Source of the DNA: Candidatus Magasanikiibacteriota bacterium
GTDB taxonomy: Bacteria; Patescibacteriota; Patescibacteriia; Magasanikbacterales; UBA922
Direction of reading: 5' to 3'
Length of the DNA stretch: 64,000 nt
Assembly (NCBI GenBank): GCA_052034405.1
Contig: JBPOIO010000004.1
Coordinates: forward strand, 751-64,750
The notes beneath the pieces were generated by a model that saw only the letters and a list, made by a program, of their open reading frames with translations, did not search any database and was not told the DNA's origin. Both the position numbers and the translations under genes were made by a program. Numbering within the stretch: position 1 is the first letter of the stretch; the number at the start of each line of letters is the position of its first letter. Below are positions 13,113-27,540 of the stretch, one piece after another.

Positions 13113-13184
13113 GCACTCGTCGTTCAATGGATAGGACGCTAGTTTGCGGAACTAGCAATCTAAGTTCGATTCTTAGCGAGTGCA
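13113..13184 (+). tRNA. tRNA-Arg, anticodon GCG (read from loop TTGCGGA)
   Basis: 72-nt cloverleaf folded by hand. The acceptor stem GCACTCG/CGAGTGC is perfect. The D-stem is GTTC/GGAC with GG in the loop. The anticodon stem CTAGT/ACTAG is perfect. The T-stem is CTAAG/CTTAG with a TTCGATT loop, and the discriminator is A. No CCA is encoded. Confidence 0.8.
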
Positions 13185-14669
13185 CACGTCGGGAAGTTGC
13201 GCCAAAGCGCGACTTACCTGGAACGGATACTTTGCTTCAACTAGCAGAGTTTTTTGTTTCAGCGCGAGGTTCGAGAAGAGGGTCTGGCAGACCTCGCGTT
13301 TCTTCTCGGGCTCGCCAGCTTCGAACTTTTTCTTCGCTAGAACTGCGAACGAAATCCCCTCCATCAAGGGTTCGATGAGTCCCGCGACTGGACTGGCTCG
13401 TTCCAGTTGCGCACGGAGCGCAATCTGCTCGCTTGTGAGGGCTCTGCGGTCCTCATCAAGCTCCTCGCCGGTAATGCGACCCTCAGCAGCTAGATGACGA
13501 AGGTTTCGGAGCTTCTCGTCGTTCTTCACCAGTTTCGCTTCGACCGTTTGGACGACCCTCGACTCCGAATCGCAGACCTCAGCGCGAACGCTCCTCAGCT
13601 CGTCCAGCACGGCCTCCGCTACGTCAGGCGGGAGAGTGAGATCGTTGATGCTCAACGCGAGTTGCTCTTCAAGTGACACTTGCTCGACGGACGGCTCGTC
13701 GCAGTAGAGATATGCACGACTCTTTCGGCAGCAATGGTAGTACGTGTAGCGGGTTCCGAATCGGTTGACCTTGTTCTCCGCAGTGACGACGGACGCACAA
13801 GAACCGCATCTCAATATGCCACGGTATGGAAACCGGTTCGTTTGTGGGCGCGGTTCAGATGCACCCAGGCGCTTGAACTGCTCCTGTACTTCCTCGAACT
13901 CGGCCCAGGAGACGGCGGCGGGATGCGTGCCGGGGAACGATCCCTCCTTCCGAACCATCAGCCCGGCATAGAACGGGTCGCGCAGTGTCCGGTACAACAA
14001 CGACTGGGAAATCAACTTCCCACCGTGGCTCCGCATCACCGGAGTCGTCAGGTGCCACTCCTTGCGGGCTCGGTTGAGGATATCGGACATTGGCACCCCC
14101 ATTCGCCGCAATCGAAACGCCTCTCGAATTAGAGGAAGTCGCACCGGATCAGCCAGGAGCTTCATTGTCGAACGGTCGCGGGTGTAGCCAATTTTCGGAG
14201 CACCAGGCCAAAGGCCCTGTAGCAGTGCCTGCTTGTTGCCACGACATATGTTCTTGCGGAGGTCATCAATGTCTTTCGTGGCCATCCCGAAGATGATGGA
14301 CATCATGAGCTTGTCGTCACCTGACCCAGTGAACGCCCGCTCGGGCGTGAGGATCTCCTTGATCGCTCCGGTGCCGAGCAGCCACATGATGGAGCCACCA
14401 TCGATGGGGTTCCTCGCCAGACGGTTGAGATGCCAGCACAAGACTGCGTCGGCTTTCTTCGCGTTGAGCATGGCCATGACTCTTGCGAACTCTGGCCGGC
14501 CTGGTTCCTTCGCAGACCGCGTTTCGCGGATCGGCTCCCCCACGATGAGAAGATTGCGGGCCTGAGCAAATGAGAGAAGCTCCCGCTCCTGGGCTGGTAT
14601 TGAGAGCTGCTGCTTCCCGTCGTCGAGCGTGGATTTCCGCACGTAGACTACGTATTTCAATGGGTTCAT
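13173..14669 (-). CDS. large serine recombinase (integrase) of the GC-rich island
   Basis: N-terminal resolvase catalytic motif YVRKST..QQLSIPAQ with the serine nucleophile. It also has a recombinase domain, a zinc ribbon (CGSCASV...YYHCC) and a coiled-coil. Its stop codon lies inside the tRNA T-stem. Confidence 0.9.
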   Translation of the reverse strand: MNPLKYVVYVRKSTLDDGKQQLSIPAQERELLSFAQARNLLIVGEPIRETRSAKEPGRPEFARVMAMLNAKKADAVLCWHLNRLARNPIDGGSIMWLLGTGAIKEILTPERAFTGSGDDKLMMSIIFGMATKDIDDLRKNICRGNKQALLQGLWPGAPKIGYTRDRSTMKLLADPVRLPLIREAFRLRRMGVPMSDILNRARKEWHLTTPVMRSHGGKLISQSLLYRTLRDPFYAGLMVRKEGSFPGTHPAAVSWAEFEEVQEQFKRLGASEPRPQTNRFPYRGILRCGSCASVVTAENKVNRFGTRYTYYHCCRKSRAYLYCDEPSVEQVSLEEQLALSINDLTLPPDVAEAVLDELRSVRAEVCDSESRVVQTVEAKLVKNDEKLRNLRHLAAEGRITGEELDEDRRALTSEQIALRAQLERASPVAGLIEPLMEGISFAVLAKKKFEAGEPEKKREVCQTLFSNLALKQKTLLVEAKYPFQVSRALAQLPDVCTR

Positions 14670-14685
14670 ATTGTTGTCAAGTTAG

Positions 14686-14892
14686 TTAGTCAAAGAGGAC
14701 CACGTAGAAAGCTGCCACGAGGTCCTTCGCTACGATTCTGAGCTCGGCCGGTGACAAATCCCGTGGATGGTGTGGGTCACTGCGAAGGGCTTCACCAAGC
14801 CGAATGAGGAAGGCGGCGCTGGGCTCGTAGTTGCCGAGACATGCTAACCTCATACGCTGTGATTTGTGGTCATTAGATGAGTGCATATGCAT
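14686..14892 (-). CDS. hypothetical small protein next to the integrase (possible excisionase/RDF-like accessory)
   Basis: 68-aa ORF immediately upstream of and co-oriented with the recombinase. No motif. The functional guess is by position only. Confidence 0.3.
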   Translation of the reverse strand: MHMHSSNDHKSQRMRLACLGNYEPSAAFLIRLGEALRSDPHHPRDLSPAELRIVAKDLVAAFYVVLFD

Positions 14893-14950
14893 TCATCGTA
14901 ACAACTCATTGCTTGGTCGTCCCGTCGCACCGTGATGCGAAAATGAACAA

Positions 14951-14980
14951 AAGAAGAACTCCACGACCGGAGTTCTTCTT
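14951..14980 (-). terminator. perfect 12-bp-stem hairpin (aagaagaactcc/ggagttcttctt), terminator-like on the minus strand
   Basis: Perfect inverted repeat with a 6-nt loop. On the minus strand it is followed by ttgttcatttt. It sits between the transfer-gene block and the integrase pair. Confidence 0.35.
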
Positions 14981-15242
14981 CATGCTTGTCATCTCTCTTC
15001 TTCTGCCCTGTGGATAGCGTGGTCAGAATCCGACCATCGTGCTACGGGACTACATCTTGCGGCTATGAGAAGATATACTATGTAAGCCGCGAAATCGGGC
15101 AAGACGAGAGTTTGAAAATGTCGTCACCCCAGTCTCGCGGAAATATGTGCCCTAGGCAGGCCATTCATCCCAACAAGAGAGGAGGTGACATTAGGTAGAC
15201 TACAACTTGTGCATATTCTGTCAAGTGTAGGTACCAATAGCT

Positions 15243-15944
15243 ATGACAAACAATGAATCAGAACAACGCGTGCTGAGCGAGAAATCGCTCGTGTTCAACG
15301 TGGAAGTTCTTCGCAAGAACTTCAGCAAGCACGTGGTCACGCAAGAAGACCTCGCCACCATGACCGGCGTGCCGAGGAGCGCGGCTGCGATGGAGTCCTC
15401 CCAACTGCCCGGCCGTGGTGTTCGCCGGAGTTCGTTCGTCATAGCGTGTCTGGTCAAGGTCAACGTGGGGTCGCCCTTGGGCCAGTCCGCCGGCTTCGCG
15501 TCGAAGCACCTCCTTCTCGTCCGTGGTTTCCCCGAGTCGGTTCGGGGCGGCCTTCGCCGCCTCAGATTCGGTTCGCGCGACCGGACACGACTCCGCGCTC
15601 AGCACCTGCGAGGCGTCGGGGGTCATCGTGGTGGTCGGTCGCGTCTTCACGAGCCCGACGCTACGCGCGGCGGATCGAGTGGTCGAGCGCGCGAAGGGTG
15701 CCGTGGTGTCTGCCCCTGGTGTGGCCCCCTGGTGCGAGCCCCCGGTCAGTCCGACACACCACCCCTCGGCTTCTCATCTTCTTGGAATCACTCGGTTTTC
15801 AAGGAACGCAAAACAAGGAATCAGCCCCTTCTTGGGGCATCTCGTTCATCCGGCGCACGGACGCGGACGACCGCGCCACTCTGCGCTTCCACCTCGCGTT
15901 CGCCAAGGTCCGCGAGCCGGTACCAGCCGCTCGTCAGCGCGTAG
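15243..15944 (+). CDS. XRE-family HTH regulator (N-terminal about 65 aa); the long Arg/Gly-rich C-terminal continuation is doubtful
   Basis: LRKNFSKHVVTQEDLATMTGVPRSAAAMES resembles an XRE HTH. The rest of the 233-aa frame is low-complexity, typical of open frames in GC-rich DNA, and overlaps the Replic_Relax gene on the opposite strand. Confidence 0.4.
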   Translation: MTNNESEQRVLSEKSLVFNVEVLRKNFSKHVVTQEDLATMTGVPRSAAAMESSQLPGRGVRRSSFVIACLVKVNVGSPLGQSAGFASKHLLLVRGFPESVRGGLRRLRFGSRDRTRLRAQHLRGVGGHRGGRSRLHEPDATRGGSSGRAREGCRGVCPWCGPLVRAPGQSDTPPLGFSSSWNHSVFKERKTRNQPLLGASRSSGARTRTTAPLCASTSRSPRSASRYQPLVSA

Positions 15945-16693
15945 TTCACCGGCTCGGCCTTCAGGTCGAGGACCCGGCCGAAGACCGGACCACCGATGTC
16001 CACCGCCTGGCGGCCCAGGGCGGCGAGCCGCTTCACCGATTTCGCCACGATGAGCATGCCGTCGGGGACCAGGCCCGCGATCTCCATGCGCGCGGCGTGC
16101 ATCCGGGCGAAGAAGGCGATCTTGTTCTCGGCCACGTACTGCGGCCCCTCGGTGCCCGTGTCGATCTCCACGACGAAGCTGCGCCGGCGCTCGGCGTCCT
16201 CGACCGTGAGGACCGCGTCGGGCCTGTACTTGAGGATGGTCGGGAGGTGGGCCTGGTCAAGCTCCCACTCGAACTGGTAGCGAACCAGGCGCACCCCTCG
16301 GGACAACTCGCACTCGGCCACGACCCGGCTCCAGAAGCGGACGTTCATCAGGTGGTGCTCGCCCGGACCCGAATACTCGGCCGGCGCGCTGCGGGGCCTC
16401 TCGTCGAGGCCGAGGTCCTCGAAGAGCGCGATCTGACCCTTGCGGTCGAGCACGTACCGCGTCTCTTCGTGCAGCGCGTTGCAGTACCCGGCCAGGTACC
16501 CGGTATCCATGAGCTTCTTGAGTCGCCGGCGGGCCATCGCCACGGACGGGAAGTAGAGCGGCACGACGTCGGACACGGTGAGCACCTTGGCCTTTCGGAG
16601 GGCCTCGAAGAGCGCGAGGTCGCGCTCCTGGAGATCAGCCGCGCGTCCGGCGCGGCCGTTCCCCGATTGCCTGCCGAGTCCACGTCCCGCCAT
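15821..16693 (-). CDS. replication-relaxation family protein (Replic_Relax-like)
   Basis: N-terminal wHTH-like LQERDLALFEALRKAKVLTVSDVVPLYF...ARRRLKKLMDTGYL, then a conserved core (EWELD, YRPDAVL, FVVEIDTGTE) as in plasmid/ICE replication-relaxation proteins. Confidence 0.55.
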   Translation of the reverse strand: MAGRGLGRQSGNGRAGRAADLQERDLALFEALRKAKVLTVSDVVPLYFPSVAMARRRLKKLMDTGYLAGYCNALHEETRYVLDRKGQIALFEDLGLDERPRSAPAEYSGPGEHHLMNVRFWSRVVAECELSRGVRLVRYQFEWELDQAHLPTILKYRPDAVLTVEDAERRRSFVVEIDTGTEGPQYVAENKIAFFARMHAARMEIAGLVPDGMLIVAKSVKRLAALGRQAVDIGGPVFGRVLDLKAEPVNYALTSGWYRLADLGEREVEAQSGAVVRVRAPDERDAPRRG

Positions 16694-16705
16694 GAGTGTG
16701 AGCCG

Positions 16706-17026
16706 CTACACCTTCGGGTTGACGATGGACACCCCGCAGGTGTGGCAGTTGACGTAGGCGGGCGCGGTCTTGCAGGCCGGGCAGGCCGACCACACCCAGC
16801 CGTCGCGCGTGGCGCCGCAGGTCGAGCACTCCCAGAGCCCGTCCGCCGGTTGGGGCGGGCAGCCCCGCTTGCACTTCAACTCGCGCTTGACCACGGCCAT
16901 GCCGACCTTCCCGGTCTTGTAGGTCCACTTGCCAAAGGAGATCAGCTTGAAGAGCGCGGCCAGCGAGAAGACCACGGCCGCGTACATGAGCTGAAACGGC
17001 GCCAGAATCCAGCGAAGTTCATCCAT
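16706..17026 (-). CDS. small membrane protein with C-terminal Cys-rich zinc-ribbon-like domain
   Basis: It has one TM helix followed by CxxC...CxxC...CxxC spacing (CSTCG, CPAC, CHTCG). Confidence 0.4.
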   Translation of the reverse strand: MDELRWILAPFQLMYAAVVFSLAALFKLISFGKWTYKTGKVGMAVVKRELKCKRGCPPQPADGLWECSTCGATRDGWVWSACPACKTAPAYVNCHTCGVSIVNPKV

Positions 17027-17050
17027 GCCTTGCCCTCTTTCGAGTTGTTT

Positions 17051-19075
17051 CTATCCGATGAACGGCCCTCTTCGCGTCCGGTTGCCCTTGGGGCTCTGGC
17101 CTTCGTGGCCCTTCTCCTCCTTTCCCGTAGCCCGTTGCCCATCGCCCAGGGGGACTGGCGGCGGAGCCGTTTGGCCGCCAGGTTCGCGTTTGGGTTGCTG
17201 CTCGTCTGGCCGAGGCGCAGCCTCGACCTCCTCTTGTCGCCCCTCAGATTCCTTCGCTGGCCGCGGCCTCACCTTGCCCGGAGGTGGCCGCTGCGGATTG
17301 CGCCGATCAGGCTTCGAGCCTGGCTCCCTGACCTCGTGGGGCACCCGGTCGCGCAGATCGCGCCTCGGGTCGCGAGCGAAGCCGCCCGCCACTTCCTTGA
17401 TGTGGTGCTTGCGCTTCTCGATGGCCTCGTTGAGGACGTGCGCTGGCGTGCCGCAGCCGTACCCACGGCACAGGGCGCGCAGCTCGTCGGAGGCCCGGTC
17501 AGCGGCCCGGCGCAGATCGTCGAACGGGACCTCGGGCGCAATGAGCCGTGCTGCCGGCCGCCCCAGCGCCCGCGGGTAGAACCAAAAGTGGCGCTTCGGC
17601 AGACGAATCAGCTCTTCGACGTGGCGCGCTCGCTGCTCGCTGGGGCGCTCGACGCGGGTCTCGTAGCGTGGGCCGTCGAGATCTCGCCGAACGCGGCAGT
17701 GCTCCGAGACCGGGAACATGTGGGAGAAGCGCCGGGCATCGCTCGGCGACTGCTGGAACACGGTCTGGTAGCCGCAGGAGTTCTCGATGGTCGCGAGCAG
17801 CGCCGAGCTGCGGCTCGCCACCTGCGCCGGCAACTGGTTGATGAGCCAGAGCGCCACGTTCTTGTGCCGGGCTAGGGTGAGCAGGCTCTCGAAGTCGCCG
17901 GCCAGGTCCGCGTCGAGACCCAGCCACCACTCGTCGATGGCCGCGATCACGGGCCGGCGGGTATCACGTCGGGAGTAGATGGCCCGGGCAAGCCCACGCA
18001 CGAAGACCGAGATCCAGAACCGGGTCAGGAACTCGGCGCCGCGCGGAGCCCCGCCCAGGTTGACCACGGTGAGCGGCCCTTCAAGTAGGGAGGCATAGGA
18101 CACGCACCCTGGGGCGCAGAGCACGCGCGCCGTATCCTCGAAGAGCAGCAGGTCGAGCCGGGCCACCACGGCCTGCACCGACTCGGTCGGCTCCTGCGGG
18201 AACCGGTGGGTGAAGTACTCGCGGATCTCATAGTCCTCGACTTCCCTGAGGAGGCCGTTCAGGTACCGGTCGTTGATGAGCGCCGAGCGCAACTCGAGGA
18301 TGGACAACCCGCCGACCGAAAGCATGAGGCGCAGGGCGTTGAGGAGAATCCCCATCATCCGGACGCCCCAGTCACCCCCGGCCCCGCCGAGGGCCTCCCC
18401 GATGAGGTTGGCGATCTCCTTGGCGTGAAGCGAGCGCGAGATGCCGCCGACGGGAGCAAGCAGGTTCATTTCCGGGAGGTTGCTTTCGTCGAAGGGCGCG
18501 ACGACGTTCAGGCCACGAATGACCTCGATGATGTCGTCTTCTTCAGCGTCTCGGAGCATGGCCGGGAGGAGCAGATCGGTGATCCACTCGGCGCTCTCGC
18601 CCTTGGCGTCCACGTGCAAGAGGGACCACGGCATGCCCGGCCCGATGAGCTGCATCTCCTCGGCGAAGGTCTGCGCGCTCTTGCCCCGGCCCGTGGCCCC
18701 GACGATCCAGCGGTGGACGCCGTACAACTCCGAGACCGGTACGGCGACCGGGATGTCCTCGGCCTCGGCCAGGGTGCCCACGAGGACGCGAACACCATCC
18801 TCACCGGCCCGCTCGTCGAGATCGTTCAGAAGGTGGACTTCAGGCGGCGGGTCGAGGCTCTCAAAGTGGTGCTCGATGGCCGCCTCGACCAGCTTGCGCT
18901 TGGAGCCCACGAAGAGCCGCCGAAGGCCGGCTTCGAGCAGGCTCACGAGAGGATCCGCGTTTGCTGGAGAAAGAGGCGCATGACGACGCTTGCTCCTGGT
19001 TGCCGAGCCCCTGCCCGGGCCACGAAGCAAAGCGTAGGACGATTTCCGGGATCCGCAACTTTTTTTCTGAAGCAC
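17051..19075 (-). CDS. FtsK/TraD/VirD4-like P-loop ATPase (type IV coupling-protein-like) with Arg/Pro-rich C-terminal tail
   Basis: Walker A is GATGRGKS and Walker B is VIAAIDEWW. A WLINQLPAQ motif resembles the T4CP Q-motif. The TraM-recognition-like C-region is low-complexity. Confidence 0.5.
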   Translation of the reverse strand: MLQKKSCGSRKSSYALLRGPGRGSATRSKRRHAPLSPANADPLVSLLEAGLRRLFVGSKRKLVEAAIEHHFESLDPPPEVHLLNDLDERAGEDGVRVLVGTLAEAEDIPVAVPVSELYGVHRWIVGATGRGKSAQTFAEEMQLIGPGMPWSLLHVDAKGESAEWITDLLLPAMLRDAEEDDIIEVIRGLNVVAPFDESNLPEMNLLAPVGGISRSLHAKEIANLIGEALGGAGGDWGVRMMGILLNALRLMLSVGGLSILELRSALINDRYLNGLLREVEDYEIREYFTHRFPQEPTESVQAVVARLDLLLFEDTARVLCAPGCVSYASLLEGPLTVVNLGGAPRGAEFLTRFWISVFVRGLARAIYSRRDTRRPVIAAIDEWWLGLDADLAGDFESLLTLARHKNVALWLINQLPAQVASRSSALLATIENSCGYQTVFQQSPSDARRFSHMFPVSEHCRVRRDLDGPRYETRVERPSEQRARHVEELIRLPKRHFWFYPRALGRPAARLIAPEVPFDDLRRAADRASDELRALCRGYGCGTPAHVLNEAIEKRKHHIKEVAGGFARDPRRDLRDRVPHEVREPGSKPDRRNPQRPPPGKVRPRPAKESEGRQEEVEAAPRPDEQQPKREPGGQTAPPPVPLGDGQRATGKEEKGHEGQSPKGNRTRRGPFIG

Positions 19076-19116
19076 GCGCCAGGAGGAATGTGAGGCTGCG
19101 GGGACGGACGCCGGAA

Positions 19117-20121
19117 CTACGAGAGAAGAGCAAGAACGCCTTCGAGTTCGCTCCGGAGTGCCTTCTTCTCGGCGTCCGACAGCTCCTTGGCGTTGAACTT
19201 GACGGGGCGCAAGCGCACGTCACCGATCTTCAGGTTGGTGCCGTCCGAGCGGAAGATGCTCGGGAGCGACTTCTTCTCCGATGCGCCCCGGAACGCCTCA
19301 TTGACGTGCCGAACGATCTGCGGGATGGAGAGTTCCTCGTTGTTGATGCGCGTGACCCACTCGATGTAGTGGAGCTTCGGGTACCTAGCCTTGAGCTTCT
19401 TCAGGGTCAGGGCATGGGTCGCCTTGAAGGTGGTCCCTTCCTCCCCGATGGCCGTCTGCACCTCAGCCGGCAGGTCGAGGAGCGCCAAGAGGTTGTTCTT
19501 CTGGCGCTTGGTGAGGTTCATGAGCTCAGCGACCTCGAAGCTCTTGTACCCCGAGTCCTGGTACCGCTTGATCACGTAGGCCCGGTCGATGTCCGAGTAG
19601 GTCTTGCGGGCCATGTTCTCGAGGACCGAGGCCCGGAACGCCTCCTGGTCGTCCACCAGGTCCCGGCGAACGTAGGCGGAGATGAAATCCGCCTTCAGCT
19701 CAGTGAGTGCCGTAGCCCGACGGAAGCCCGAGACGAGCTGCCACTTGAACCCGTCCTCGGGGCGCGGGTGAGGACGAACGACGGCCGGGATCTGCTGACC
19801 ACTCTCGCGGATGCTCTTGACGAGGTCGGCCACCCGCACGACCGCTCGGAAGCGGTACGTCACGTCGCCGAGGTCGATTTCGCTGAGCGGGACCTGACGA
19901 ACCACCAAGTCGTTGTCGAGGACCGTGGGGACGTCCACTGGGACCCGGCTCGCACCAGGCGGACGACCGCGGCGCTTCGCCGCAGATGGAGCGGCCTCGG
20001 TTGTGGGAGCGGGGGGCGTCGGCTCGGGTGTGGAGGTTTCCATGACCCTACTAGACGGAGCCTTCGCGGCGACTTTGCGATCTTTTTTCAACTGGCTCGG
20101 TTTTGGTGCGGGTCGGGGCAT
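19117..20121 (-). CDS. ParB/Sulfiredoxin-domain protein (ParB-like partition/nuclease)
   Basis: N-terminal ParB motif (LSEIDLGDVTYRFR ... VSGFRRATAL) followed by HTH-like and C-terminal helical regions. The N-terminus is Pro/Ala-rich. Confidence 0.65.
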   Translation of the reverse strand: MPRPAPKPSQLKKDRKVAAKAPSSRVMETSTPEPTPPAPTTEAAPSAAKRRGRPPGASRVPVDVPTVLDNDLVVRQVPLSEIDLGDVTYRFRAVVRVADLVKSIRESGQQIPAVVRPHPRPEDGFKWQLVSGFRRATALTELKADFISAYVRRDLVDDQEAFRASVLENMARKTYSDIDRAYVIKRYQDSGYKSFEVAELMNLTKRQKNNLLALLDLPAEVQTAIGEEGTTFKATHALTLKKLKARYPKLHYIEWVTRINNEELSIPQIVRHVNEAFRGASEKKSLPSIFRSDGTNLKIGDVRLRPVKFNAKELSDAEKKALRSELEGVLALLS

Positions 20122-20182
20122 GATTATCTCCGCAGGTGATTGTGGAGAAGGTCATACGCCGACGAACAAGTGGCCGCAAGGT

Positions 20183-20198
20183 GGGAAATCGATTTCCC
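20183..20198. promoter_or_regulatory. perfect 16-bp palindrome GGGAAATCGATTTCCC in the divergent promoter region (candidate operator)
   Basis: Perfect palindrome between the divergent parB-like gene and the plus-strand operon. A near-identical copy is at 25386–25401. Confidence 0.4.
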
Positions 20199-20297
20199 GG
20201 GGCTTACCGGTTCCGCGACGCTTGACGGTTGGTCATCAGGCTGCTAACCATCCCGACAAGCTATGAAATCCAGCACAATAACTTGTAACAACACGGT

Positions 20298-20999
20298 GTG
20301 GAGCGCCTGTTGAGTGATCGTGAGTACGACTCGACAACGGAGGTCACAAGCGAGATCATTCAGCTAGCTGAAGCCGAATCGTTGGAAGAAGCCGTCGCAA
20401 AGTTGAACATGCTTCCGCTTACCGGCACCTCGAAAATTGCACTCAAGATGCTGTCCCCGTGGACCCGCGGCGGTGCCGAGACGTACGTGACAACATTTGA
20501 TATCACGGCGGGGGCGGAGTGTGCTCCTTGCATTCTAAAGGCCTGTGTGGCGTTCGCCATCACGCCTGGCGGAGTAGAAGCAATTCTGGAGTCGTGGATC
20601 GCCCGTAGACGGTTACTTGCGGCCCATGGAGCAGCGGTCCCGCGGCTCTATGCATACGGCCGCGGGGTCGTTCTCGAGGAACGACTTCCTTACAGAGCGC
20701 AGGACTTGATCGCTGCCAAATCTGCGACACGCCCCGCTGTATTAGCAAGCCTTTTCAAGTTGACCCGCGCCTTGGAGCAGGTACGATTCCAGCCCGTATC
20801 AATACTCCCTGATGTCATGTCGGACGGAGAACGGGCCGTTCTGGTGGATTTCGGCCAGGATCTTGGAGACCCGATGCCTGCCGAAACCGACGTAGACACC
20901 TACGCCCGCACGGTCGCCTCGCTCACACAACTCGGAATAAATCTCAGCCCCGAAGAGCAGGAACTTACACTTGCCGTGCATAACGGCCACGTACACTAG
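20298..20999 (+). CDS. hypothetical protein, first gene of the island operon (weak protein-kinase-like features)
   Basis: 233-aa ORF. Weak resemblance to kinase motifs (CILKAC as a possible beta3 Lys, VLVDFGQD as a possible DFG). Speculative. Its stop overlaps the next gene. Confidence 0.35.
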   Translation: MERLLSDREYDSTTEVTSEIIQLAEAESLEEAVAKLNMLPLTGTSKIALKMLSPWTRGGAETYVTTFDITAGAECAPCILKACVAFAITPGGVEAILESWIARRRLLAAHGAAVPRLYAYGRGVVLEERLPYRAQDLIAAKSATRPAVLASLFKLTRALEQVRFQPVSILPDVMSDGERAVLVDFGQDLGDPMPAETDVDTYARTVASLTQLGINLSPEEQELTLAVHNGHVH

Positions 21000-22005
21000 G
21001 ACCAGAATGAAAATTCGTGACGCAGTCGAAGCAGCGCATTCCGTGAACGACGGGGCAACCGTAGTTGCCCCCCTAGATCTCGGCGGGAACGAGCAGAACC
21101 AGCTTCTGATGTTCCTGAAACCGGAGACCTTCCTGAGCAACGATAGGGAAACGCCAGCAACGGTGGCCGATCTTGCTGACCGCCTCATCAACTCGTTCCG
21201 ACTGCGGATGTCTGGGATCATCGGAGTGTCCGGGCCGACGCTCGGGTCACTCCGTGCAATGGACAAGCACTACGGCTTCATCAACAAGATGTCACGGGCT
21301 GCATCCGTCTCGCTGGATGCCAAAACGCTTGAAGGTCTTCGGTCCCGGTATGCCACTGGACCGGATGGCGCGGTTCTGGGTGGCCACGAGTTCCTTGAGC
21401 GTCATCAGGACTGGGATGCCCAGAAGCTGGACACGCTGTGGGCGACGAAGAAGAGCGACCGAATTCGAAGTGGCCTGTATGCTCAGCTCTACGACATTCC
21501 CGGCACTGGACCGACCATCCTGCTCAACGGCTTTCATCCTGCACAACTTGAACACTTCACTGCGCCAGGTCGAAAGGTCATCCTGATCGTGCTGAACAGC
21601 GACCTGCCCTGGTCTGTTCTGCGACGACGGATGCTCGGTGACACCTTCCCGGAGAAGGCGGTTGCGGGCTCGTTCAGGCGCGCACTCTACGACACCCGAG
21701 AGAAGTTGGGCTTGCCGGACGTCTCAATCGCCAACAATTTCGCGCATCTCTCGGCTGGACCATTCGAAGCTGCGTTTGAACTGAACAACTTCCTCGGATC
21801 TGTCTGCCCAGACCAGTTCACAATTGCGAACAGCCGATTGTGGAAGCACGGCCTGCGAATCGGGTTGACCAACGACCAGTTGGCTGGGTCACTCAACAAT
21901 CCGCCCGTGGAGGTCGCTGGAACGCGGCTTCCGCTCTTCGACGCTACCGAAGATTGTGACTCGCTGACCTCTCTTCAGCTGCTGGCATCGCACGGCGCGG
22001 GCTGA
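20971..22005 (+). CDS. nucleoside-diphosphate-kinase-like protein with an approximately 70-aa insertion (start probably at Met 21007)
   Basis: By-eye alignment to Ndk. LMFLKPETF matches IIKPNAV. FHPAQLEHFTAPGRKVILIVL matches FF.GLVEFMTSGPIVV.VL. RRRMLGDTFPEKAVAGSFRRALYD matches LLGATNPA.ALAGTLRADYA. NNFAHLSAGPFEAAFEL matches NGTHGSDSVESAAREI, with the catalytic His retained. Confidence 0.5.
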   Translation: MPCITATYTRTRMKIRDAVEAAHSVNDGATVVAPLDLGGNEQNQLLMFLKPETFLSNDRETPATVADLADRLINSFRLRMSGIIGVSGPTLGSLRAMDKHYGFINKMSRAASVSLDAKTLEGLRSRYATGPDGAVLGGHEFLERHQDWDAQKLDTLWATKKSDRIRSGLYAQLYDIPGTGPTILLNGFHPAQLEHFTAPGRKVILIVLNSDLPWSVLRRRMLGDTFPEKAVAGSFRRALYDTREKLGLPDVSIANNFAHLSAGPFEAAFELNNFLGSVCPDQFTIANSRLWKHGLRIGLTNDQLAGSLNNPPVEVAGTRLPLFDATEDCDSLTSLQLLASHGAG

Positions 22006-22018
22006 ATCGAGGCGACCT

Positions 22019-22873
22019 ATGGCGTCAAGTGCACCACGCGGCTGGCTCGGAAAAACGGCTGGCGTATTTAGCCTACACGAGTCTGACCGTACGTGCGGAT
22101 CGTATATTTCTATCCGAGACGCTGCCACGATTCTAAAGGTCGACCCTGCCGAACTCGACCACTACCGGCTCGCACAGCACGGCGAGCAAGATTTCACGAC
22201 AGACAAGACGCTTGGTCGCGCATGGGCTTCTGGCCAGATCACGAGTCCTCGCACATCCATGCGGCGCGGAAATTCCATGGTAAGTTTCGACGAACTCATC
22301 GTGCTCACTCTCATTGAGTTGACCTTGCCTGGTGCAGCCGTTCATCCGCAAAAAGAGGTTGATAGGTTCCTGATAGACTTTCTCGTGGAACACAATGGCG
22401 TAACAATTGCGCTTGAGTTTTGCGGACCGCACCACTTCATTCGACGACACCCAGGAGAGCGCACGCCCCTGGACCCGCGTGTTCGCGCTGAGCGCATTTC
22501 GCGGCTGCTGAACGTCGAGTGCGTTATCTGGCCGTATTGGGTCCAACGATGTGAGTCAAACGTCCGAGCCCTTTTTGATTCCTCAGTGCGCGGAATCGCC
22601 AGCGTTTGGTCAACAAGCGCCCAGTTCGGCAACTTTTCATTTCCTGACTCTCACAAAGTGATTCAGGACATCAACGCGCGCTTTCGAGTGGAACGGGAAA
22701 CTGGCATCGGGTACATGTACACTGACGAAATCGTGAGCAAGCCAGTGCACCCCGTGGTCTCCCAGATTAGACGGGGACGGGAGTCCGTTTCAAAACTCGT
22801 CCCGCCCGGTTCCACATCGTCGAAGCGATACTGGGTTCCACGGGTGCTTTGGTCCGTAATCGACGGTGGCTAG
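22019..22873 (+). CDS. DUF559/Vsr-like restriction-endonuclease-fold protein
   Basis: DRFLIDFLVEHNGVTIALEFCGPHHF followed by DPRVRAERISRLLNVECVIWPYW matches the DUF559 pattern (DF..x..L.iE.DG..H ... D..R...L...G..V.R). The usual Asp is replaced by Cys (EFCG). Confidence 0.45.
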   Translation: MASSAPRGWLGKTAGVFSLHESDRTCGSYISIRDAATILKVDPAELDHYRLAQHGEQDFTTDKTLGRAWASGQITSPRTSMRRGNSMVSFDELIVLTLIELTLPGAAVHPQKEVDRFLIDFLVEHNGVTIALEFCGPHHFIRRHPGERTPLDPRVRAERISRLLNVECVIWPYWVQRCESNVRALFDSSVRGIASVWSTSAQFGNFSFPDSHKVIQDINARFRVERETGIGYMYTDEIVSKPVHPVVSQIRRGRESVSKLVPPGSTSSKRYWVPRVLWSVIDGG

Positions 22874-24641
22874 CATGACTGACGACTTTCACGTCGACGC
22901 CGGCCTAATTCAAGCAGCGCAGGCGCTGGCGCGCATCATGCGAGAGCAGGAGTTCTGCCTCTACCTAACCGGGCTCGCCGCGTCAGGGAAGACCGCCGCA
23001 GCAGAAATCATTTCGCGGATGACGGGTGTGCCCGTTGTTGACTCCGGCCTGGTATTCCGACTCGCTGCCTATCTTTGCGTACATGTTCCTGTCGCAGCAG
23101 AGAATCCGGGCGTGCTCGCCCGCCTCTTGGGTGAGCACACAATCAAGGTCGTGAACGGGCAATATCGAATTCTGTCTGGTGACTCGGACATTACGGAGAG
23201 ACTTCAGGCGCCAGATGTCGGCTCTCAGGCGACTGCAACGGCCGCGGAACCTAGACTTCGAGAAGTGATTCTTACCTTTCTAAGATCTAGGACGAAGGCG
23301 CCAGCCATCGTGGCTGCACGCGGCGTTACTGAACCACTCACAACAGGAAACTTCGTTCAGATAGAATTGCGAGCAGACCTAGAGGTTCGCGCGGCTCGGC
23401 GCGCTAAGCAAAGTGGTTCGCCAGTTGCTACGATTCGAAAGAGCATACGAGCTCGAGACGACCGCGACCAACGCGGCCCGTCACGGTATCCAAGCGCTGA
23501 CTTTGTTGACAGTTCGAAACTGACCCTTCATGAGACCGTAGCCCGAGTTGTTGAAAGAACGACCGCGCGGATTTCTCGCCTTCTGAGCATCTCTGAATTT
23601 AGGAAAGTTGAGTTCAACAACGCTGAACAGCTGAGCAACCCCTTGCTTGTACGTCTCTGGGCCGAAGCACAGGCAGGACTTGAGGAGGAAGAAAGCACAC
23701 AGGGCATCCCGAAGGGGCACGCGAAAGCACGTTTTCTCCTCAATCTCTCGCGTTACTCGTCGCTGGATCTACTGGGACTGTCGCATTCATGGATGCCTGG
23801 GGCTCTGCCGGGACTTGTGGACACAGCCGCTGCTGTCCCCGCAAACGACTTGCTGATGCGCGAGTGTGCTAGAACGGTGGAAGAGCGGGCCAAGTCGATT
23901 CGGCGATTCATGGAAGCGACACGCTTTCCGAGTGCTATTTTTGATGAAAGATCCCTTCGGCTTGAGCTTGTTCGAGGGCGACCAGTGGGGACCTCGGAAG
24001 GTGGAGAGGTGGTAGAACACTATCACCTCCGTGACACGTCCCCAGAAGTCGGCATGTGGCTCGAAAACAATCTTCACTACTTAGGTGCAGCACGCCTCGA
24101 CACCACTCATAGAGTCGCGCTTGTAGAAGCGTCGAGTGAATTTCCTGTCCTGTACTTGTCATTCGCTCCAAACACTCGCAAGTACATGGAGCCGCTCCTG
24201 TGGCGAGTCGGACTCAGGTTAGAGGAGGTTGCTGTCGCAGTACGTGGCTACGGAACGCCCCGTTGTCCTCGGAATGCGATGGCATGGTTCCTTCGTGAGG
24301 CATGTGCTCGGGTCAAGCAAGACTTTCCACATCTCCGTGCCGTTGTCACAGACATCAACCCCAACTGGGGCTTCAGCGGATCGTCCTTTCAGGAGGCCGG
24401 ATTTGTCACGTTGGGAATGAAGTACGCTCCCACAAGCTTTGTCGCGGGCGATTATTCCCCGCGACGGAGCCTCGAGCGCCAACCCGGAAGCCGCGCGGCA
24501 GTTGGGAACAGACTGCCGCTGGTTCCAACGTTGGTCATGATTAGGCCATTTCCCAAGGAATCCATTCTTCGAACACGTATTGCAGAGTCGGTGGTTGATG
24601 GTGTATACTTGATACCTCGGGACTTGTATGAAGAAAAATAG
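22866..24641 (+). CDS. cytidylate-kinase-like P-loop kinase fused to a C-terminal GNAT-like acetyltransferase domain
   Basis: N-terminal about 235 aa align by eye to Cmk: LYLTGLAASGKTAAAEIISRMTGVPVVDSGLVFRLAA versus ITIDGPSGAGKGT...LLDSGAIYRVLA; LSGDSDITERLQAPDVGSQATATAAEPRLRE; IRARDDRDQRGPSRYP versus IKERDDRDRNRAVAPL. The C-terminus has a GNAT-like motif A (VRGYGTP) and NPNWGFSGSSFQEAGF. Confidence 0.55.
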   Translation: MASMTDDFHVDAGLIQAAQALARIMREQEFCLYLTGLAASGKTAAAEIISRMTGVPVVDSGLVFRLAAYLCVHVPVAAENPGVLARLLGEHTIKVVNGQYRILSGDSDITERLQAPDVGSQATATAAEPRLREVILTFLRSRTKAPAIVAARGVTEPLTTGNFVQIELRADLEVRAARRAKQSGSPVATIRKSIRARDDRDQRGPSRYPSADFVDSSKLTLHETVARVVERTTARISRLLSISEFRKVEFNNAEQLSNPLLVRLWAEAQAGLEEEESTQGIPKGHAKARFLLNLSRYSSLDLLGLSHSWMPGALPGLVDTAAAVPANDLLMRECARTVEERAKSIRRFMEATRFPSAIFDERSLRLELVRGRPVGTSEGGEVVEHYHLRDTSPEVGMWLENNLHYLGAARLDTTHRVALVEASSEFPVLYLSFAPNTRKYMEPLLWRVGLRLEEVAVAVRGYGTPRCPRNAMAWFLREACARVKQDFPHLRAVVTDINPNWGFSGSSFQEAGFVTLGMKYAPTSFVAGDYSPRRSLERQPGSRAAVGNRLPLVPTLVMIRPFPKESILRTRIAESVVDGVYLIPRDLYEEK

Positions 24642-24644
24642 CCT

Positions 24645-25217
24645 ATGAGAATCCTTGTAGCCACCCGCAACAGGGACAAATTCAATATCGTCAAGCGCCT
24701 GGTAGAAGCAACTGTGCCGGACGCACATCTTGTTTTTCTCGGCGACACTCCGATCAGCGGAGACGTTGTTGAAGCAGGGTCAATCCACGAACGCGCCCGG
24801 CAAAAGGCAGTGTACTTTTGGGGGCGCTTGGAGTGGTCTACAATAGCCGACGACTTCGATTCAGTGCTGGCGGTGGACGACGGGCTGAGCGTCGGCGGCG
24901 CGGAAGCCACGCCTCACTCCAAAGAGATGACAGAACGAATACTCAGTGAGGCGTGGCCAACGGGAACTAAGGTGGATGTCGTTCGCGCGTTTTGCCTGAT
25001 AAGGCGTGGGGAAGTGCCGCGTGTGGAACTCACGGCGATCCCGTTTGTATTTGTAGGCAATCCACATGGCGTCCAACGTGAAGACGGTACGTATCCGTTG
25101 AGCCAGGTCCTTAGCCCCGAGGGAATGGCTCAACCAGTGTCTCAACTCACAAACGATGAAGAAGATGCATTCTACCTTCGCCACTCTCGGGAGCCGCTCG
25201 TTGCGCTGTTCTCATAG
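24645..25217 (+). CDS. Ham1/ITPase-like (RdgB-family) non-canonical NTP pyrophosphatase-like protein
   Basis: MRILVATRNRDKFNIVKRLV versus MKIVFATGNKGK; TIADDFDSVLAVDDGLSVGGAEAT versus AIADDSGLAVDVLGGAPG. It starts 4 nt after the upstream stop. Confidence 0.5.
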   Translation: MRILVATRNRDKFNIVKRLVEATVPDAHLVFLGDTPISGDVVEAGSIHERARQKAVYFWGRLEWSTIADDFDSVLAVDDGLSVGGAEATPHSKEMTERILSEAWPTGTKVDVVRAFCLIRRGEVPRVELTAIPFVFVGNPHGVQREDGTYPLSQVLSPEGMAQPVSQLTNDEEDAFYLRHSREPLVALFS

Positions 25218-25260
25218 TGATCGGCACCCCAAATCATGGACATTGGCAATCAAGTAATTG

Positions 25261-25297
25261 CTCGACCAGGGTCCTGACTTCTATCCTCGCTGTGCAC
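25261..25297 (+). repeat. 37-bp direct repeat copy 1 (CTCGACCAGGGTCCTGACTTCTATCCTCGCTGTGCAC), candidate att/junction site
   Basis: 33 of 37 positions are identical to 27494–27530. Weaker similarity extends about 14 nt upstream. It contains a GTGCAC core. Confidence 0.6.
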
Positions 25298-25385
25298 TAA
25301 CCGTGAGCATGTCGAACTGAGCATGCTCTAACGAAACATCGCGTAATTGCGATGTTTTCATTTTCTAAGCAGTCGTTCGAGCACG

Positions 25386-25401
25386 CGGGAAATCGACTTC
25401 C
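25386..25401. promoter_or_regulatory. second copy of the GGGAAATCGAyTTCCC palindrome (one mismatch) upstream of the PD-(D/E)xK gene
   Basis: GGGAAATCGACTTCCC, about 57 nt upstream of the ATG at 25458. It is adjacent to the palindrome GAGCATGCTC at 25311–25340. Confidence 0.35.
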
Positions 25402-25457
25402 CAGCAATTCGAACAGGGCTTGTTGGCCTTTCTCTGATATGGTAACATTTAACTAAT

Positions 25458-26291
25458 ATGTTGAAATCACACATGGCTGCCCGCGAGGGCGTACTGCTTG
25501 CCAGCAGTAAGGTCGCAGCAAATACAGGGCATTCGCTTCATAAGGGAACGCCTCGCGAGATCTTTATCCGCGAGTTCCTGGAAAGCCATCTCGCCGAGAC
25601 CGTCGCGATCGGCACTGGCGAAGTGATCGACTCAGAATCGATGCCGAATCCGCCACCGACAAGACAGCGCAATCAGTACGACATCATCATTTACAAGAAG
25701 AATTATCCAAAACTCGCCATCGGCGGTGGGATCTCGGCGTTTCTTTGCGAGTCGGTTGTAGCGACAATCGAAGTGAAATCCACTCTCACTAAGGATGAGC
25801 TACAATCGAGTGCAAGAGCCGCGCGAGCTGCGAAGCTACTCAAACCCAGTAGAGTCGAGGCTTTCAGGACAGGCTACCACCCGCCGTCGATCTTGAACTA
25901 CGTCGTGGCATATGACGGACCTGCATCAATGAAGACTGTGGCCGGTTGGCTACAGGATGCTGACGCGTACGCTGGAGTGCCAGGGCATCCGGATCTAAGT
26001 GGTGCCGACAGAACTCAGAAGGCGAGCCCGAGCCTCGATGGCGTGTTCGTGATGGGCAAAGGGTTCATGTTGTACGGCAATTCACCACTTTCTATTCTTT
26101 CGGTGGACGACCGCAAACGTGCGTCGAACCTCAAATGGGAATTCGCTGACTGCGAAGTTGGAAGTCTGTTCTTGCTATTCGTAACGTTGAGCCAAGTCGT
26201 GAGTGGGCACTCTGCGACCTGGCTCGACGCTGGGCCATACCTCAGCGGATTCTCTGTCCAAAATGATTCAATTGGCATGGTCGGCTGGTAG
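25458..26291 (+). CDS. PD-(D/E)xK nuclease-fold hypothetical protein
   Basis: DIIIYKK ... ESVVATIEVKST gives the D...(E)xK arrangement typical of restriction-endonuclease-like folds. No closer family recognised. Confidence 0.4.
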   Translation: MLKSHMAAREGVLLASSKVAANTGHSLHKGTPREIFIREFLESHLAETVAIGTGEVIDSESMPNPPPTRQRNQYDIIIYKKNYPKLAIGGGISAFLCESVVATIEVKSTLTKDELQSSARAARAAKLLKPSRVEAFRTGYHPPSILNYVVAYDGPASMKTVAGWLQDADAYAGVPGHPDLSGADRTQKASPSLDGVFVMGKGFMLYGNSPLSILSVDDRKRASNLKWEFADCEVGSLFLLFVTLSQVVSGHSATWLDAGPYLSGFSVQNDSIGMVGW

Positions 26292-27380
26292 TACCAAGCT
26301 CGGTTGCAGGTTATTACTGAGCTGTATGCGGAGCACTAGTTCGTCAAGTCGCATCTTCTCTTCAAGCGCGTCCATCTGTTCTGATGGCACCCCAGTTGCG
26401 CTTCTAAGCTGTGATCGAACCATCGTCTCTAGTTTCTCCGCGTCAGTGCTGAATCGACAGCCCGTTCGATGGCACCGATAATAGCGATAGACTCGTCCAT
26501 TTCTCTTCATGTGTTGTTCGCCGACAAGGAATCCCAAACAATTTGGACAAGTGACCTTTCGAGCGAGTAGGAAGTGCAAGTGCTTCCGAGGCTGCCCGCC
26601 GCTGTGCTTCTGCCGAAAGACTTCCTGGCTTCGGTCGAATATCTCCTTGGTGATCAATGATGGATGAGTACCGGTGTACTCAACACCCACGACGACCATC
26701 TTCCCCATGTAGAATGAGTTGTGGAGGATCGCACAGACCTTTGCTGCACTGACTTTCTTGCCGTGCCGGCTGACGAGGCCAGCACGGTGCAGTTCGTCAG
26801 CAAGCTGAGCGCTTCCGACTTGACCAGTGGCCCAGCGCTCGAAAGCCATCTTTATGAATCTTGCTCGGGCAGGGTCAACGACGACTTTGCCGTGCTCCTT
26901 GAGATACCCAAGAGGAGGAAGTCCACACCATCCTCCACGAAGGAGCTTCTCTTCGATCCCCCTCTTGACTTGTTGCGCCAGGTTGGCGCTGTAGAATTCT
27001 GCTTGTGCTGACATAATACGTTCAATGAATTGACCAACTGGAGTTTCTTCGCAGTTCTCCACGGCCGAAACGATTCGAACACCGTGGCGACGGAGCCGCT
27101 CCTTGATGGTCAGATAAGTAAACATGTCGCGTGCCAGTCGGTCGAGACGGTGAACGAAGAAGATGTTCACGTCGCGACTGCGACACGCAACGTCGAGTCC
27201 AGAGAGAAGGCCTGTTCGTCCACGGAATGATGTGCCACTCGCCACGTCCGTGAACGTCCCCGCAGCAACCCAACCTCGCTCAGAACAAAGTCGTCGAAGC
27301 GTGCGCAGTTGTGCTGGAATTGAAAGATCCTTCTCCCCTTGCTTGCTCGTTGAAACGCGAGCGTAGAGTATGACTGACAT
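26268..27380 (-). CDS. serine recombinase (resolvase/integrase family, 370 aa) of the sub-element
   Basis: It has the YARVSTSKQ catalytic motif, a recombinase domain and a zinc ribbon (CPNC...YRCHRTGC). Confidence 0.85.
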   Translation of the reverse strand: MSVILYARVSTSKQGEKDLSIPAQLRTLRRLCSERGWVAAGTFTDVASGTSFRGRTGLLSGLDVACRSRDVNIFFVHRLDRLARDMFTYLTIKERLRRHGVRIVSAVENCEETPVGQFIERIMSAQAEFYSANLAQQVKRGIEEKLLRGGWCGLPPLGYLKEHGKVVVDPARARFIKMAFERWATGQVGSAQLADELHRAGLVSRHGKKVSAAKVCAILHNSFYMGKMVVVGVEYTGTHPSLITKEIFDRSQEVFRQKHSGGQPRKHLHFLLARKVTCPNCLGFLVGEQHMKRNGRVYRYYRCHRTGCRFSTDAEKLETMVRSQLRSATGVPSEQMDALEEKMRLDELVLRIQLSNNLQPSLVLPADHAN

Positions 27381-27493
27381 ATGATGTTGAGTTAATGACT
27401 ACACTCTTCATCATACACCTTTGATGGTACAGCGTGATGTTCATACTGTCCCGTAGCACCGTGATTCGTTTCTGAACATCCAGTCAACATCTT

Positions 27494-27530
27494 CTCGACC
27501 AGGGTTCTGACTTCTCTTCTCGCGGTGCAC
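27494..27530 (+). repeat. 37-bp direct repeat copy 2 (CTCGACCAGGGTTCTGACTTCTCTTCTCGCGGTGCAC) at the island/host junction
   Basis: It is followed immediately by AT-rich host sequence. GTGCACAC is shared with the tRNA 3' end. Confidence 0.6.
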
Positions 27531-27540
27531 ACATAAAAAA

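Follow-up and report, generated by a model that had tools for sequence, protein, structure and literature searches.

The 64,000-nt stretch of DNA analysed here (the window) comes from contig JBPOIO010000004.1 of a Candidatus Magasanikiibacteriota bacterium (GenBank assembly GCA_052034405.1), and within it a mobile element carries an operon of five tightly packed genes, which we call A to E (20298-25217, with gaps of 1-13 nt). The fourth of these, gene D, is a two-domain fusion of a kinase of the cytidylate kinase (Cmk) family with a GNAT-fold transferase, the latter related to the DNA-modifying enzyme Mom of Mu. As we argue below, the conserved five-gene operon probably builds a chemically modified nucleotide. 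Its features, all on the forward strand, are as follows.

20298..20999, + strand: gene A, the operon's first gene, a small protein-kinase-like protein of 233 aa (conserved residues, weak profile matches)
21007..22005, + strand: gene B, a divergent, enlarged nucleoside-diphosphate-kinase (NDK)-like protein of 332 aa (ortholog alignment, NDK motifs)
22019..22873, + strand: gene C, 284 aa, a possible restriction-endonuclease-like effector (its only family match, a faint one, is to REase_MTES_1575, E 0.03)
22875..24641, + strand: gene D, a Cmk-Mom-like fusion protein of 588 aa (591 aa from GTG 22866)
24645..25217, + strand: gene E, a nucleoside triphosphate (NTP) pyrophosphatase of the HAM1/ITPase fold, 190 aa (catalytic residues retained)
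25333..25358, + strand: a terminator-like hairpin closing the operon (11-bp stem, T-rich tail, 116 nt past the gene E stop)

Gene D was singled out in a first-pass annotation as an uninterrupted open reading frame (ORF) at 22866-24641, and on inspection the frame indeed runs for 591 aa, counted from a GTG codon, with no stop inside. All of the motifs quoted at that stage are present: GLAASGKT at aa 36-43, SGLVFRLAA at 60-68, AARGV at 150-154, IRARDDRDQRGPSRYP at 194-209, VRGYGTP at 459-465, and NPNWGFSGSSFQEAGF at 498-513. The true start is likely the ATG at 22875, which would give a protein of 588 aa; we prefer it because homologs and other gene calls begin there, 1 nt past the stop codon of gene C, a spacing that suggests translational coupling of the two genes. 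The fusion itself is not the product of a frameshift, nor of two genes read as one, an artefact ruled out by 12 full-length homologs of the same architecture in the protein database (42-53% identity, 588-599 aa, with kinase and transferase halves in each; the exception in length is one truncated entry of 401 aa). Alignment of these 12 sequences shows invariant residues in the kinase half and the transferase half alike, and six independent sequencing runs contain an identical gene D. Three segments of the protein can be distinguished.

22971..23558, + strand: aa 36-231, cytidylate-kinase-family domain (PF02224 match, matches to Cmk structures in the PDB)
23571..24011, + strand: aa 236-382, mainly helical linker or N-terminal extension of the transferase domain (AlphaFold2 model)
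24012..24638, + strand: aa 383-591, Mom-like GNAT-fold transferase core

The kinship of the N-terminal half with cytidylate kinases, originally proposed from its motifs, is borne out by a hidden Markov model (HMM) search, in which the domain spans positions 5-208 of the 211 in PF02224 (Cytidylate_kin) and scores well above the gathering threshold (79.3 vs 26 bits, E 4.4e-22); solved Cmk structures are matched as well, 3akc being the best (E 3.6e-17). Against TIGR00017, the NCBIfam equivalog for true (d)CMP kinases, gene D scores 61.1 bits, below the cutoff of 135.55. In Cmk, Arg41 and Arg131 bind the phosphate of the nucleoside monophosphate (NMP), Ser36, Arg110, and Asp132 make hydrogen bonds to cytosine, Tyr40 stacks on the base, and Arg188 is essential (PMC3603445). 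Much of this apparatus is present in gene D, as it is in bacterial Cmk at large: the domain is full length, the Walker A P-loop (G36-x4-G41-K42-T43) is invariant in the family together with R65, R132, and R152, and the residues S60, F64, and R65 (Ser36, Tyr40, and Arg41 in E. coli Cmk), R132 (Arg110), R152 (Arg131), and the RDxxD lid (R197-D198-x-x-D201) are all kept. What differs is the face that reads the base. The position of Asp132 is occupied by Gly153 (in 'AARG'), nearly invariantly across the family, so that the change from ADGRD noticed in the first-pass annotation is real, family-wide, and removes an Asp that hydrogen-bonds to cytosine; in distant fused relatives 'DGRD' is replaced by 'TGHN'. 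The position of Arg188 is likewise not conserved, in a region where the alignment is less certain. Retention of the phosphate ligands with loss of Asp132 fits binding of an NMP with an altered base face, and we conclude, as far as sequence can tell, that this domain is a phosphotransferase that would still bind an NMP while reading its base differently. A housekeeping role is not what we expect of it, given that, unlike bacterial Cmk, it is fused to a transferase and borne on a mobile element.

Between the kinase and the transferase core, aa 236-382 are modelled by AlphaFold2 as long helices (predicted local distance difference test mostly >90), and this segment is partly common to standalone relatives of ~320 aa, whose profile matches begin at positions 89-125. 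The C-terminal half had been described as GNAT-like. That description stands for the fold and for kinship with the Mom family, but not for a generic acetyltransferase: a search for acetyltransferase profiles found no match in Pfam or NCBIfam (E <= 0.1-1), PHROGs, or PADLOC, and we have dropped the generic label in favour of Mom-like GNAT. Kinship with Mom came to light only once structures were compared and the profile was broadened. In structure comparison, Mom is the nearest solved structure to the C-terminal domain, which has a GNAT fold, and the alignment takes in 179 of 202 residues, including a C-terminal extension past the GNAT core; the structural match to TmcA is far weaker. PDB sequence searches with the C-terminal half and with a narrow 12-sequence profile returned only OMP decarboxylase and DUSP5 at E > 0.1, neither meaningful, and gene D itself does not match the Pfam Mom model PF25680 at E <= 0.1 (gathering score 27.1 bits). 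A 157-sequence core profile of the wider family, on the other hand, matches Mu Mom with 33 bits over residues 24-222.

Mom moves glycine from Gly-tRNA(Gly) onto N6 of adenine in double-stranded DNA; its active site is lined by H58, Y59, R111, S124, D149, R151, and Y159, and the mutants S124A, R111A, and R151A are inactive (PMC13219725). We mapped these residues onto gene D with hmmalign (an HMM-based alignment that agrees with the HMMER pairwise alignment), and cross-checked the numbering against PMC7261163. Addition of Mu Mom to the core alignment with mafft --add was discarded, as it placed key residues 1-2 columns out of register. The correspondences are these.

Mom H58 / Y59: gene D H404 / Y405, conserved in 153 of 157 sequences of the wider family
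Mom R111: gene D R460, conserved in 157 of 157
Mom S124: gene D A473; the wider family has Ser in 142 of 157 sequences, the close family Gly or Ala in 10 of 12
Mom D149 / R151: gene D N498 / N500 ('NPN'); the D149 position is Asn in 151 of 157
Mom Y159: gene D F508; Phe in 100 of 157

Gene D thus shares with Mu Mom (PF25680; PDB 8bv8) the GNAT fold and the equivalents of H58, Y59, and R111, and differs from it in several respects. Mu Mom has 231 aa, whereas gene D has ~590 aa with an N-terminal Cmk domain and a helical extension of ~150 aa; the gene D family has Ala or Gly for S124, 'NPN' for D149/R151, and Phe for Y159; the net charge of its Mom-like core is +1 to +9, as against +17 in Mu Mom, and some distant fused forms are acidic; gene D scores below the Pfam Mom model; and Mu Mom acts alone, with only the regulator Com, while gene D sits inside a five-gene operon of nucleotide metabolism. 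Because three of the defining Mom residues fail and the core is much less basic, we file the C-terminal domain as a member of a Mom-related lineage and not as a Mom ortholog. The sole characterised member of the Mom lineage modifies adenine in double-stranded DNA and not a nucleotide; in gene D the acyl donor could be acyl-CoA or an aminoacyl-tRNA, and the acceptor a free nucleotide, DNA, or RNA.

The joining of such a transferase to a nucleotide kinase is a recurrent arrangement. Searched with a profile, 1.84 billion cluster representatives yielded 372 relatives of the gene D C-terminal half, many of which match PF25680 'Mom' directly (30 of the 54 long ones at E <= 0.001, with a best E of 1e-15). 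An N-terminal Cmk-like domain is present in at least 15 further, distant clusters at 50% identity, with proteins of 560-870 aa, and when the 54 long relatives were scanned with Pfam, Cytidylate_kin (16 proteins) and generic P-loop kinase models were the only recurrent partner. All of the distant fused forms retain the Mom serine. An additional N-terminal segment of ~200 aa in the 850-aa relatives was tested as a possible E-like domain, and it is not E-like. Exact-peptide-pattern scans of 185,579 species-representative genomes found no relatives, an absence that is only suggestive, and the C-terminal half has no tblastn match among GenBank phages. The fusion had been flagged from the start as unfamiliar among characterised enzymes, and we likewise found no description of a kinase-Mom fusion in the searchable literature, although Iyer et al. 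2009, who reportedly analysed Mom-containing systems, may mention one.

Two of the distant loci illustrate the range of settings. At L014 (3157-6407), a distant Cmk-Mom-like fusion of 632 aa is accompanied by an E-like gene and an HhH-GPD endonuclease-III-like glycosylase, in an AT-rich genome with the S10 ribosomal-protein operon adjacent, a setting that is chromosomal and not obviously mobile. At L016 (7408-8969), a standalone Mom-like relative of 322 aa overlaps by 4 nt an upstream gene for a 198-aa protein, which is not E-like and has a faint match to Nuc_deoxyrib_tr (E 0.21); it may be an alternative partner of the clade.

Within the close family, genes A-E are all present in every sufficiently long locus; at one locus A and B have been relocated and inverted, and the five-gene set is still complete. 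PADLOC has no model that matches any of the five. Gene B is identified through its counterparts: at the same operon position, L007 and L009 carry canonical NDKs of 179 aa (PF00334), with which gene B aligns, keeping the motifs KPE, HY, GDTxPxxAxxGSxR, and the catalytic-His motif NNFAHLSAG (aa 243-251), and the direct match of gene B to an NCBIfam NDK model is weak (E 0.2). The enlarged 332-aa form, found in the window and at L012 (12377-13372, - strand) and L019, has an insertion of ~50 aa and a C-terminal extension of ~70 aa. Gene E has the ITPase fold with the catalytic Asp pair D78/D79 and the phosphate and Mg ligands present, and is predicted to be a catalytically intact pyrophosphatase. 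An E-like protein is also encoded 3' of a distant fused homolog (hhalign probability 98.8%). Elsewhere, solitary E-like proteins of ~195 aa, 27-34% identical (L022-L025, each at 6001-6621, some on contigs of up to ~850 kb), lack Pfam annotation and form a divergent, largely unannotated ITPase family.

Gene A matches nothing in Pfam, NCBIfam, or PADLOC. Its family alignment has an invariant Lys in 'IKAC', an invariant Asp172, and an invariant 'VDFGxDLG', and the DFG region gives weak profile matches to the WbdD kinase domain (E 0.024) and to Rio2 kinase. Gene C is 58-59% identical in other cassettes and belongs to a family of 62 members, none annotated, with no match to PDB profiles. Relatives of gene C that are 39-41% identical also occur free of the cassette (L026 7001-7972; L027 and L028 7001-7813); one of these directly follows a Type III restriction-modification pair (N6_N4 methylase and ResIII helicase), and another has an EVE-NmeDI_C modification-dependent nuclease and a DUF4268 protein in its vicinity. 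At one locus, on an ENA contig (L011, 8123-9990), B and C are each split into two frames, by sequencing-error frameshifts or by decay of the genes, and D and E are intact. The hairpin that closes the operon in the window is argued for by position only, terminator-like sites in the region being no more numerous than in shuffles.

The operon lies in the following element.

13176..27532, strand not applicable: an integrative mobile element of ~14.35 kb, inserted in tRNA-Arg(GCG) (GC contrast, gene content, circular junction)

The element has a GC content of 51-70%, against 38% in its flanks, and encodes two large serine recombinases, a Replic_Relax protein, and a ParB-like protein. An independent metagenome contig (L001, 1-9392) joins position 27532 straight to position 13176, at 99.9% identity and with an 11-nt overlap; this join is the junction of the excised circle, and the element is active. 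The attachment core GTGCACAC stands at 13180-13187 and again at 27525-27532. Other cassettes of the family also adjoin integrases, relaxases, a type IV secretion system coupling protein, ParB, and ArdC-N, that is, integrative or conjugative elements, and at one cassette locus TIR and AAA/LD-cluster genes are close by.

Several other features of the element and its surroundings are recorded here for completeness. Just downstream of the cassette, beyond the terminator, 25458-26291 (+ strand) encodes a DUF6602 / PD-DExK protein (Pfam E 3.5e-22) with PADLOC matches to CRISPR-associated PD_DExK and NucC-type effector nucleases; this gene is absent from the other cassette loci. It is flanked, together with a 370-aa serine recombinase, by a 37-nt direct repeat (89% identical, 25261-25297 and 27494-27530), the right copy of which abuts attR, an arrangement that points to a mini-element, nested or accreted, or else to another attachment site. 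In the element core of 64-70% GC, an ORF of 674 aa without family match (17051-19075, - strand) is possibly a transfer or replication protein, and the long opposite-strand ORFs over it (15446-17875, + strand) are probably high-GC artefacts. The flanking genes are ordinary bacterial housekeeping genes. In the host flank (42046-44691 and 157-1761, both + strand) are a full-length ClpB of 881 aa and a separate Clp-type ATPase of 534 aa, whose matches to ClpB/ClpK profiles are confined to their second half.

What might such a gene set do? From the observed domain identities, fold relationships, conservation of residues and operon, and mobile-element context, we infer a substrate, a donor, an order of steps, and a fate for the product. 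NDK and HAM1 enzymes act on free nucleotides only, and fused enzymes usually catalyse consecutive steps; it is because of these two considerations, and because the phosphate ligands of Cmk are kept, that we favour a pathway at the nucleotide level. In the favoured reading, gene E would convert a (deoxy)nucleoside triphosphate, most likely of the cytidine type, to the monophosphate; the Mom-like domain of D would then acylate or aminoacylate the monophosphate at its exocyclic amine, the donor being an aminoacyl-tRNA such as Gly-tRNA by analogy with Mom, or alternatively acyl-CoA; the fused Cmk-like domain would add a second phosphate to the modified monophosphate; and gene B, the NDK that the cassette itself encodes, would add the third. 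The strict co-conservation with D of an NDK and an intact pyrophosphatase lends indirect support to a nucleotide that is both acylated and phosphorylated, and the second step gains some support by analogy from the fact that Mom acylates the exocyclic amine of a nucleobase (PMC13219725). Leaving aside what the product is for, we put at roughly 0.55 the probability that a free nucleotide undergoes both modification and phosphorylation by the cassette. The product would most likely be built into DNA as a mark that shields the element and its host from restriction, with gene C as a partner nuclease attacking unmarked DNA; a DNA mark is the fate we favour because restriction evasion is the only known function of the Mom lineage and because the context is mobile and restriction-related. 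The chain as a whole, in which a modified NTP is made by the cassette and incorporated in DNA against restriction, with C as the nuclease, is more tentative, and falls somewhat short of even odds.

There is a well-studied parallel for the overall logic. T4 arrives at hydroxymethylcytosine by way of the dCTPase gp56, the dCMP hydroxymethylase gp42, the dNMP kinase gp1, and the host NDK. By analogy, the cassette would offer an NTP pyrophosphatase, a putative NMP modifier, an NMP kinase, and an NDK, so that all four functional classes appear to be present, the NMP-modifying step among them being a candidate assignment, and are drawn from unrelated families. The differences are that the cassette enzymes are of the HAM1 fold, GNAT/Mom, and Cmk, with an NDK of the cassette's own; that modifier and kinase are fused; and that the carrier is an integrative or conjugative element without a polymerase, not a phage.

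A number of points weigh against the favoured pathway. To our knowledge, there is no precedent for a cellular host that builds a modified base into its DNA genome-wide, and the cassette encodes no DNA polymerase. S124, essential in Mu Mom, is Ala in gene D, and D149 and R151 are both Asn, and the Mom-like domain may accordingly use a different co-substrate, or bind without catalysing. The E-like family also stands alone among housekeeping genes (SecA, peptide deformylase, SMC, TsaE), so that generic house-cleaning could be all that gene E does; next to P0096, a distant fused homolog on a short contig, there is no E-like gene. The roles suggested for A and C are drawn from weak similarity, and the substrate and chemistry proposed for the family and its fused relatives are read from sequence and context. 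Exact peptide patterns for the close family and the distant fused group found no relatives in 2.9 million viral contigs (IMG/VR), again an absence that is only suggestive. Finally, the one Mom enzyme whose activity is characterised works after replication, on adenine within double-stranded DNA and not on a free nucleotide (PMC13219725).

For the fate of the product, the main alternative is a role as messenger or toxin. The cassette would then be a defence system of the Kongming or viperin type, whose modified nucleotide, not destined for DNA, activates the C nuclease or is itself a toxic analogue, and the active HAM1 protein E would hold the background low and prevent self-harm. Kongming (KomABC) passes from base modification at the level of the deoxynucleoside monophosphate (dNMP) through an NMP kinase and an NDK to deoxyinosine triphosphate (dITP), and in the defensive HAM1 proteins of its kind the catalytic Asp is invariably His and the protein is paired with a SIR2 effector (bioRxiv 10.1101/2024.12.20.629578). 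The resemblance is considerable: the same enzyme logic of dNMP base modifier, NMP kinase, NDK, and HAM1-like protein; a non-canonical deoxynucleoside triphosphate as the putative product; and a mobile-element and defence-island setting, with C-like genes in defence islands and the TIR and AAA/LD-cluster genes mentioned above. Moreover, the DNA-mark pathway shares its upstream chemistry with this one, so that the nucleotide-level evidence speaks for both equally. Membership in Kongming itself is rejected, however, for E keeps D78/D79 where KomB is a His-bearing sensor bound to the SIR2 protein KomC, and neither the SIR2 domain of KomC nor the adenosine deaminase KomA is found in A-E (Pfam, NCBIfam, and PADLOC scans). 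Kongming also borrows a phage kinase and the host NDK, while the A-E cassette encodes both; the nuclease role of C is putative; and no sensor or trigger component is evident. On balance we regard a messenger or toxin as unlikely.

A second possibility is that the C-terminal domain acts directly on a base in double-stranded DNA, as a post-replicative modification of the Mom type, in which case the kinase domain might serve ATP-dependent activation, bind the CCA end of a charged tRNA, or phosphorylate a group already on DNA. Mom is after all the closest relative in structure and sequence, and DNA is the only established substrate of its lineage (PMC13219725); invariance is seen in the H/Y pair and in the Arg facing the substrate (the counterpart of R111), the C-terminal extension past the GNAT core is shared, and a mobile, anti-restriction setting fits. 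This explanation nonetheless leaves the strict co-conservation of an NDK and an active NTP pyrophosphatase without a purpose, as it does the full NMP-phosphate-binding set of the kinase, and it sits poorly with a core far less basic than that of Mom and with the loss of S124, D149, and R151. We consider it doubtful.

The co-occurrence of a P-loop NTPase and a GNAT domain in one chain also recalls TmcA/NAT10, the RNA cytidine N4-acetyltransferases, whose target is the exocyclic amine of cytidine. An RNA acyltransferase of that kind would transfer an acyl group to N4 of a tRNA or rRNA cytidine held in the grip of the Cmk-like domain; without the Asp that contacts it, N4 would be open to acylation, and a ribosomal-protein operon adjoins one distant fused homolog. 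In TmcA/NAT10, however, the P-loop module is helicase-like and accompanied by tRNA-binding domains, whereas in gene D it is an NMP kinase, with no tRNA-binding domain detectable by Pfam; the match to TmcA is far weaker than that to Mom, and the NDK, the HAM1 protein, and the mobile element go unexplained, all of which makes this reading very improbable. Least probable of all is a nucleotide-supply or anti-depletion module, in which a phosphorylation ladder could be formed by A, D (through its N-terminal domain), and B, these three kinases and a house-cleaning pyrophosphatase boosting or sanitising pools while the Mom-like domain, its catalysis lost, is a regulatory or binding module. In its favour, most of the close family lacks Mom's essential Ser, and other genomes carry E-like proteins as solitary genes of the housekeeping type. 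Against it, the two halves of gene D are conserved with equal strength, and the H/Y/R/N active-site positions of the Mom-like half are invariant; the Cmk domain is far below the true-Cmk cutoff and has lost a base-recognition residue; and gene C has no place. Each of these last three explanations leaves some of the conserved genes unaccounted for; a nucleotide-level pathway is the most economical reading.

What emerges is a clade of its own among the relatives of Mom, one that has repeatedly joined the transferase to a nucleotide kinase; in the close family, the fusion is also tied to an operon with an NDK and a HAM1 pyrophosphatase whose catalytic residues are kept. This gene content points to nucleobase acylation in the nucleotide pool, so far undescribed; we found no nucleotide pathway of this type in the searchable literature. 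Mom was long an enigma, until work in 2026 showed the transfer of glycine from tRNA to DNA and defined a new category of GNAT, explicitly urging the study of 'Mom-like GNAT enzymes' (PMC13219725). It would be a bolder step, and one that we think improbable at present, to propose for gene D the first modification of a free nucleotide by a tRNA-borne amino acid, placed on the exocyclic amine of a (d)CMP-type nucleotide that the fused kinase and the cassette NDK would then bring to the triphosphate, leading to a new cellular DNA base introduced by a mobile element, for which N4-glycyl or N4-carbamoylmethyl cytosine could be candidates, or to a new class of immune messenger. If the nucleotide-level pathway is true, the operon would show either that modified DNA can be reached by a new, non-phage route or that a new base-modified nucleotide serves in signalling, next to the dITP of Kongming; and should the Mom-like domain act on DNA after all, the operon would show Mom chemistry coupled to nucleotide metabolism.

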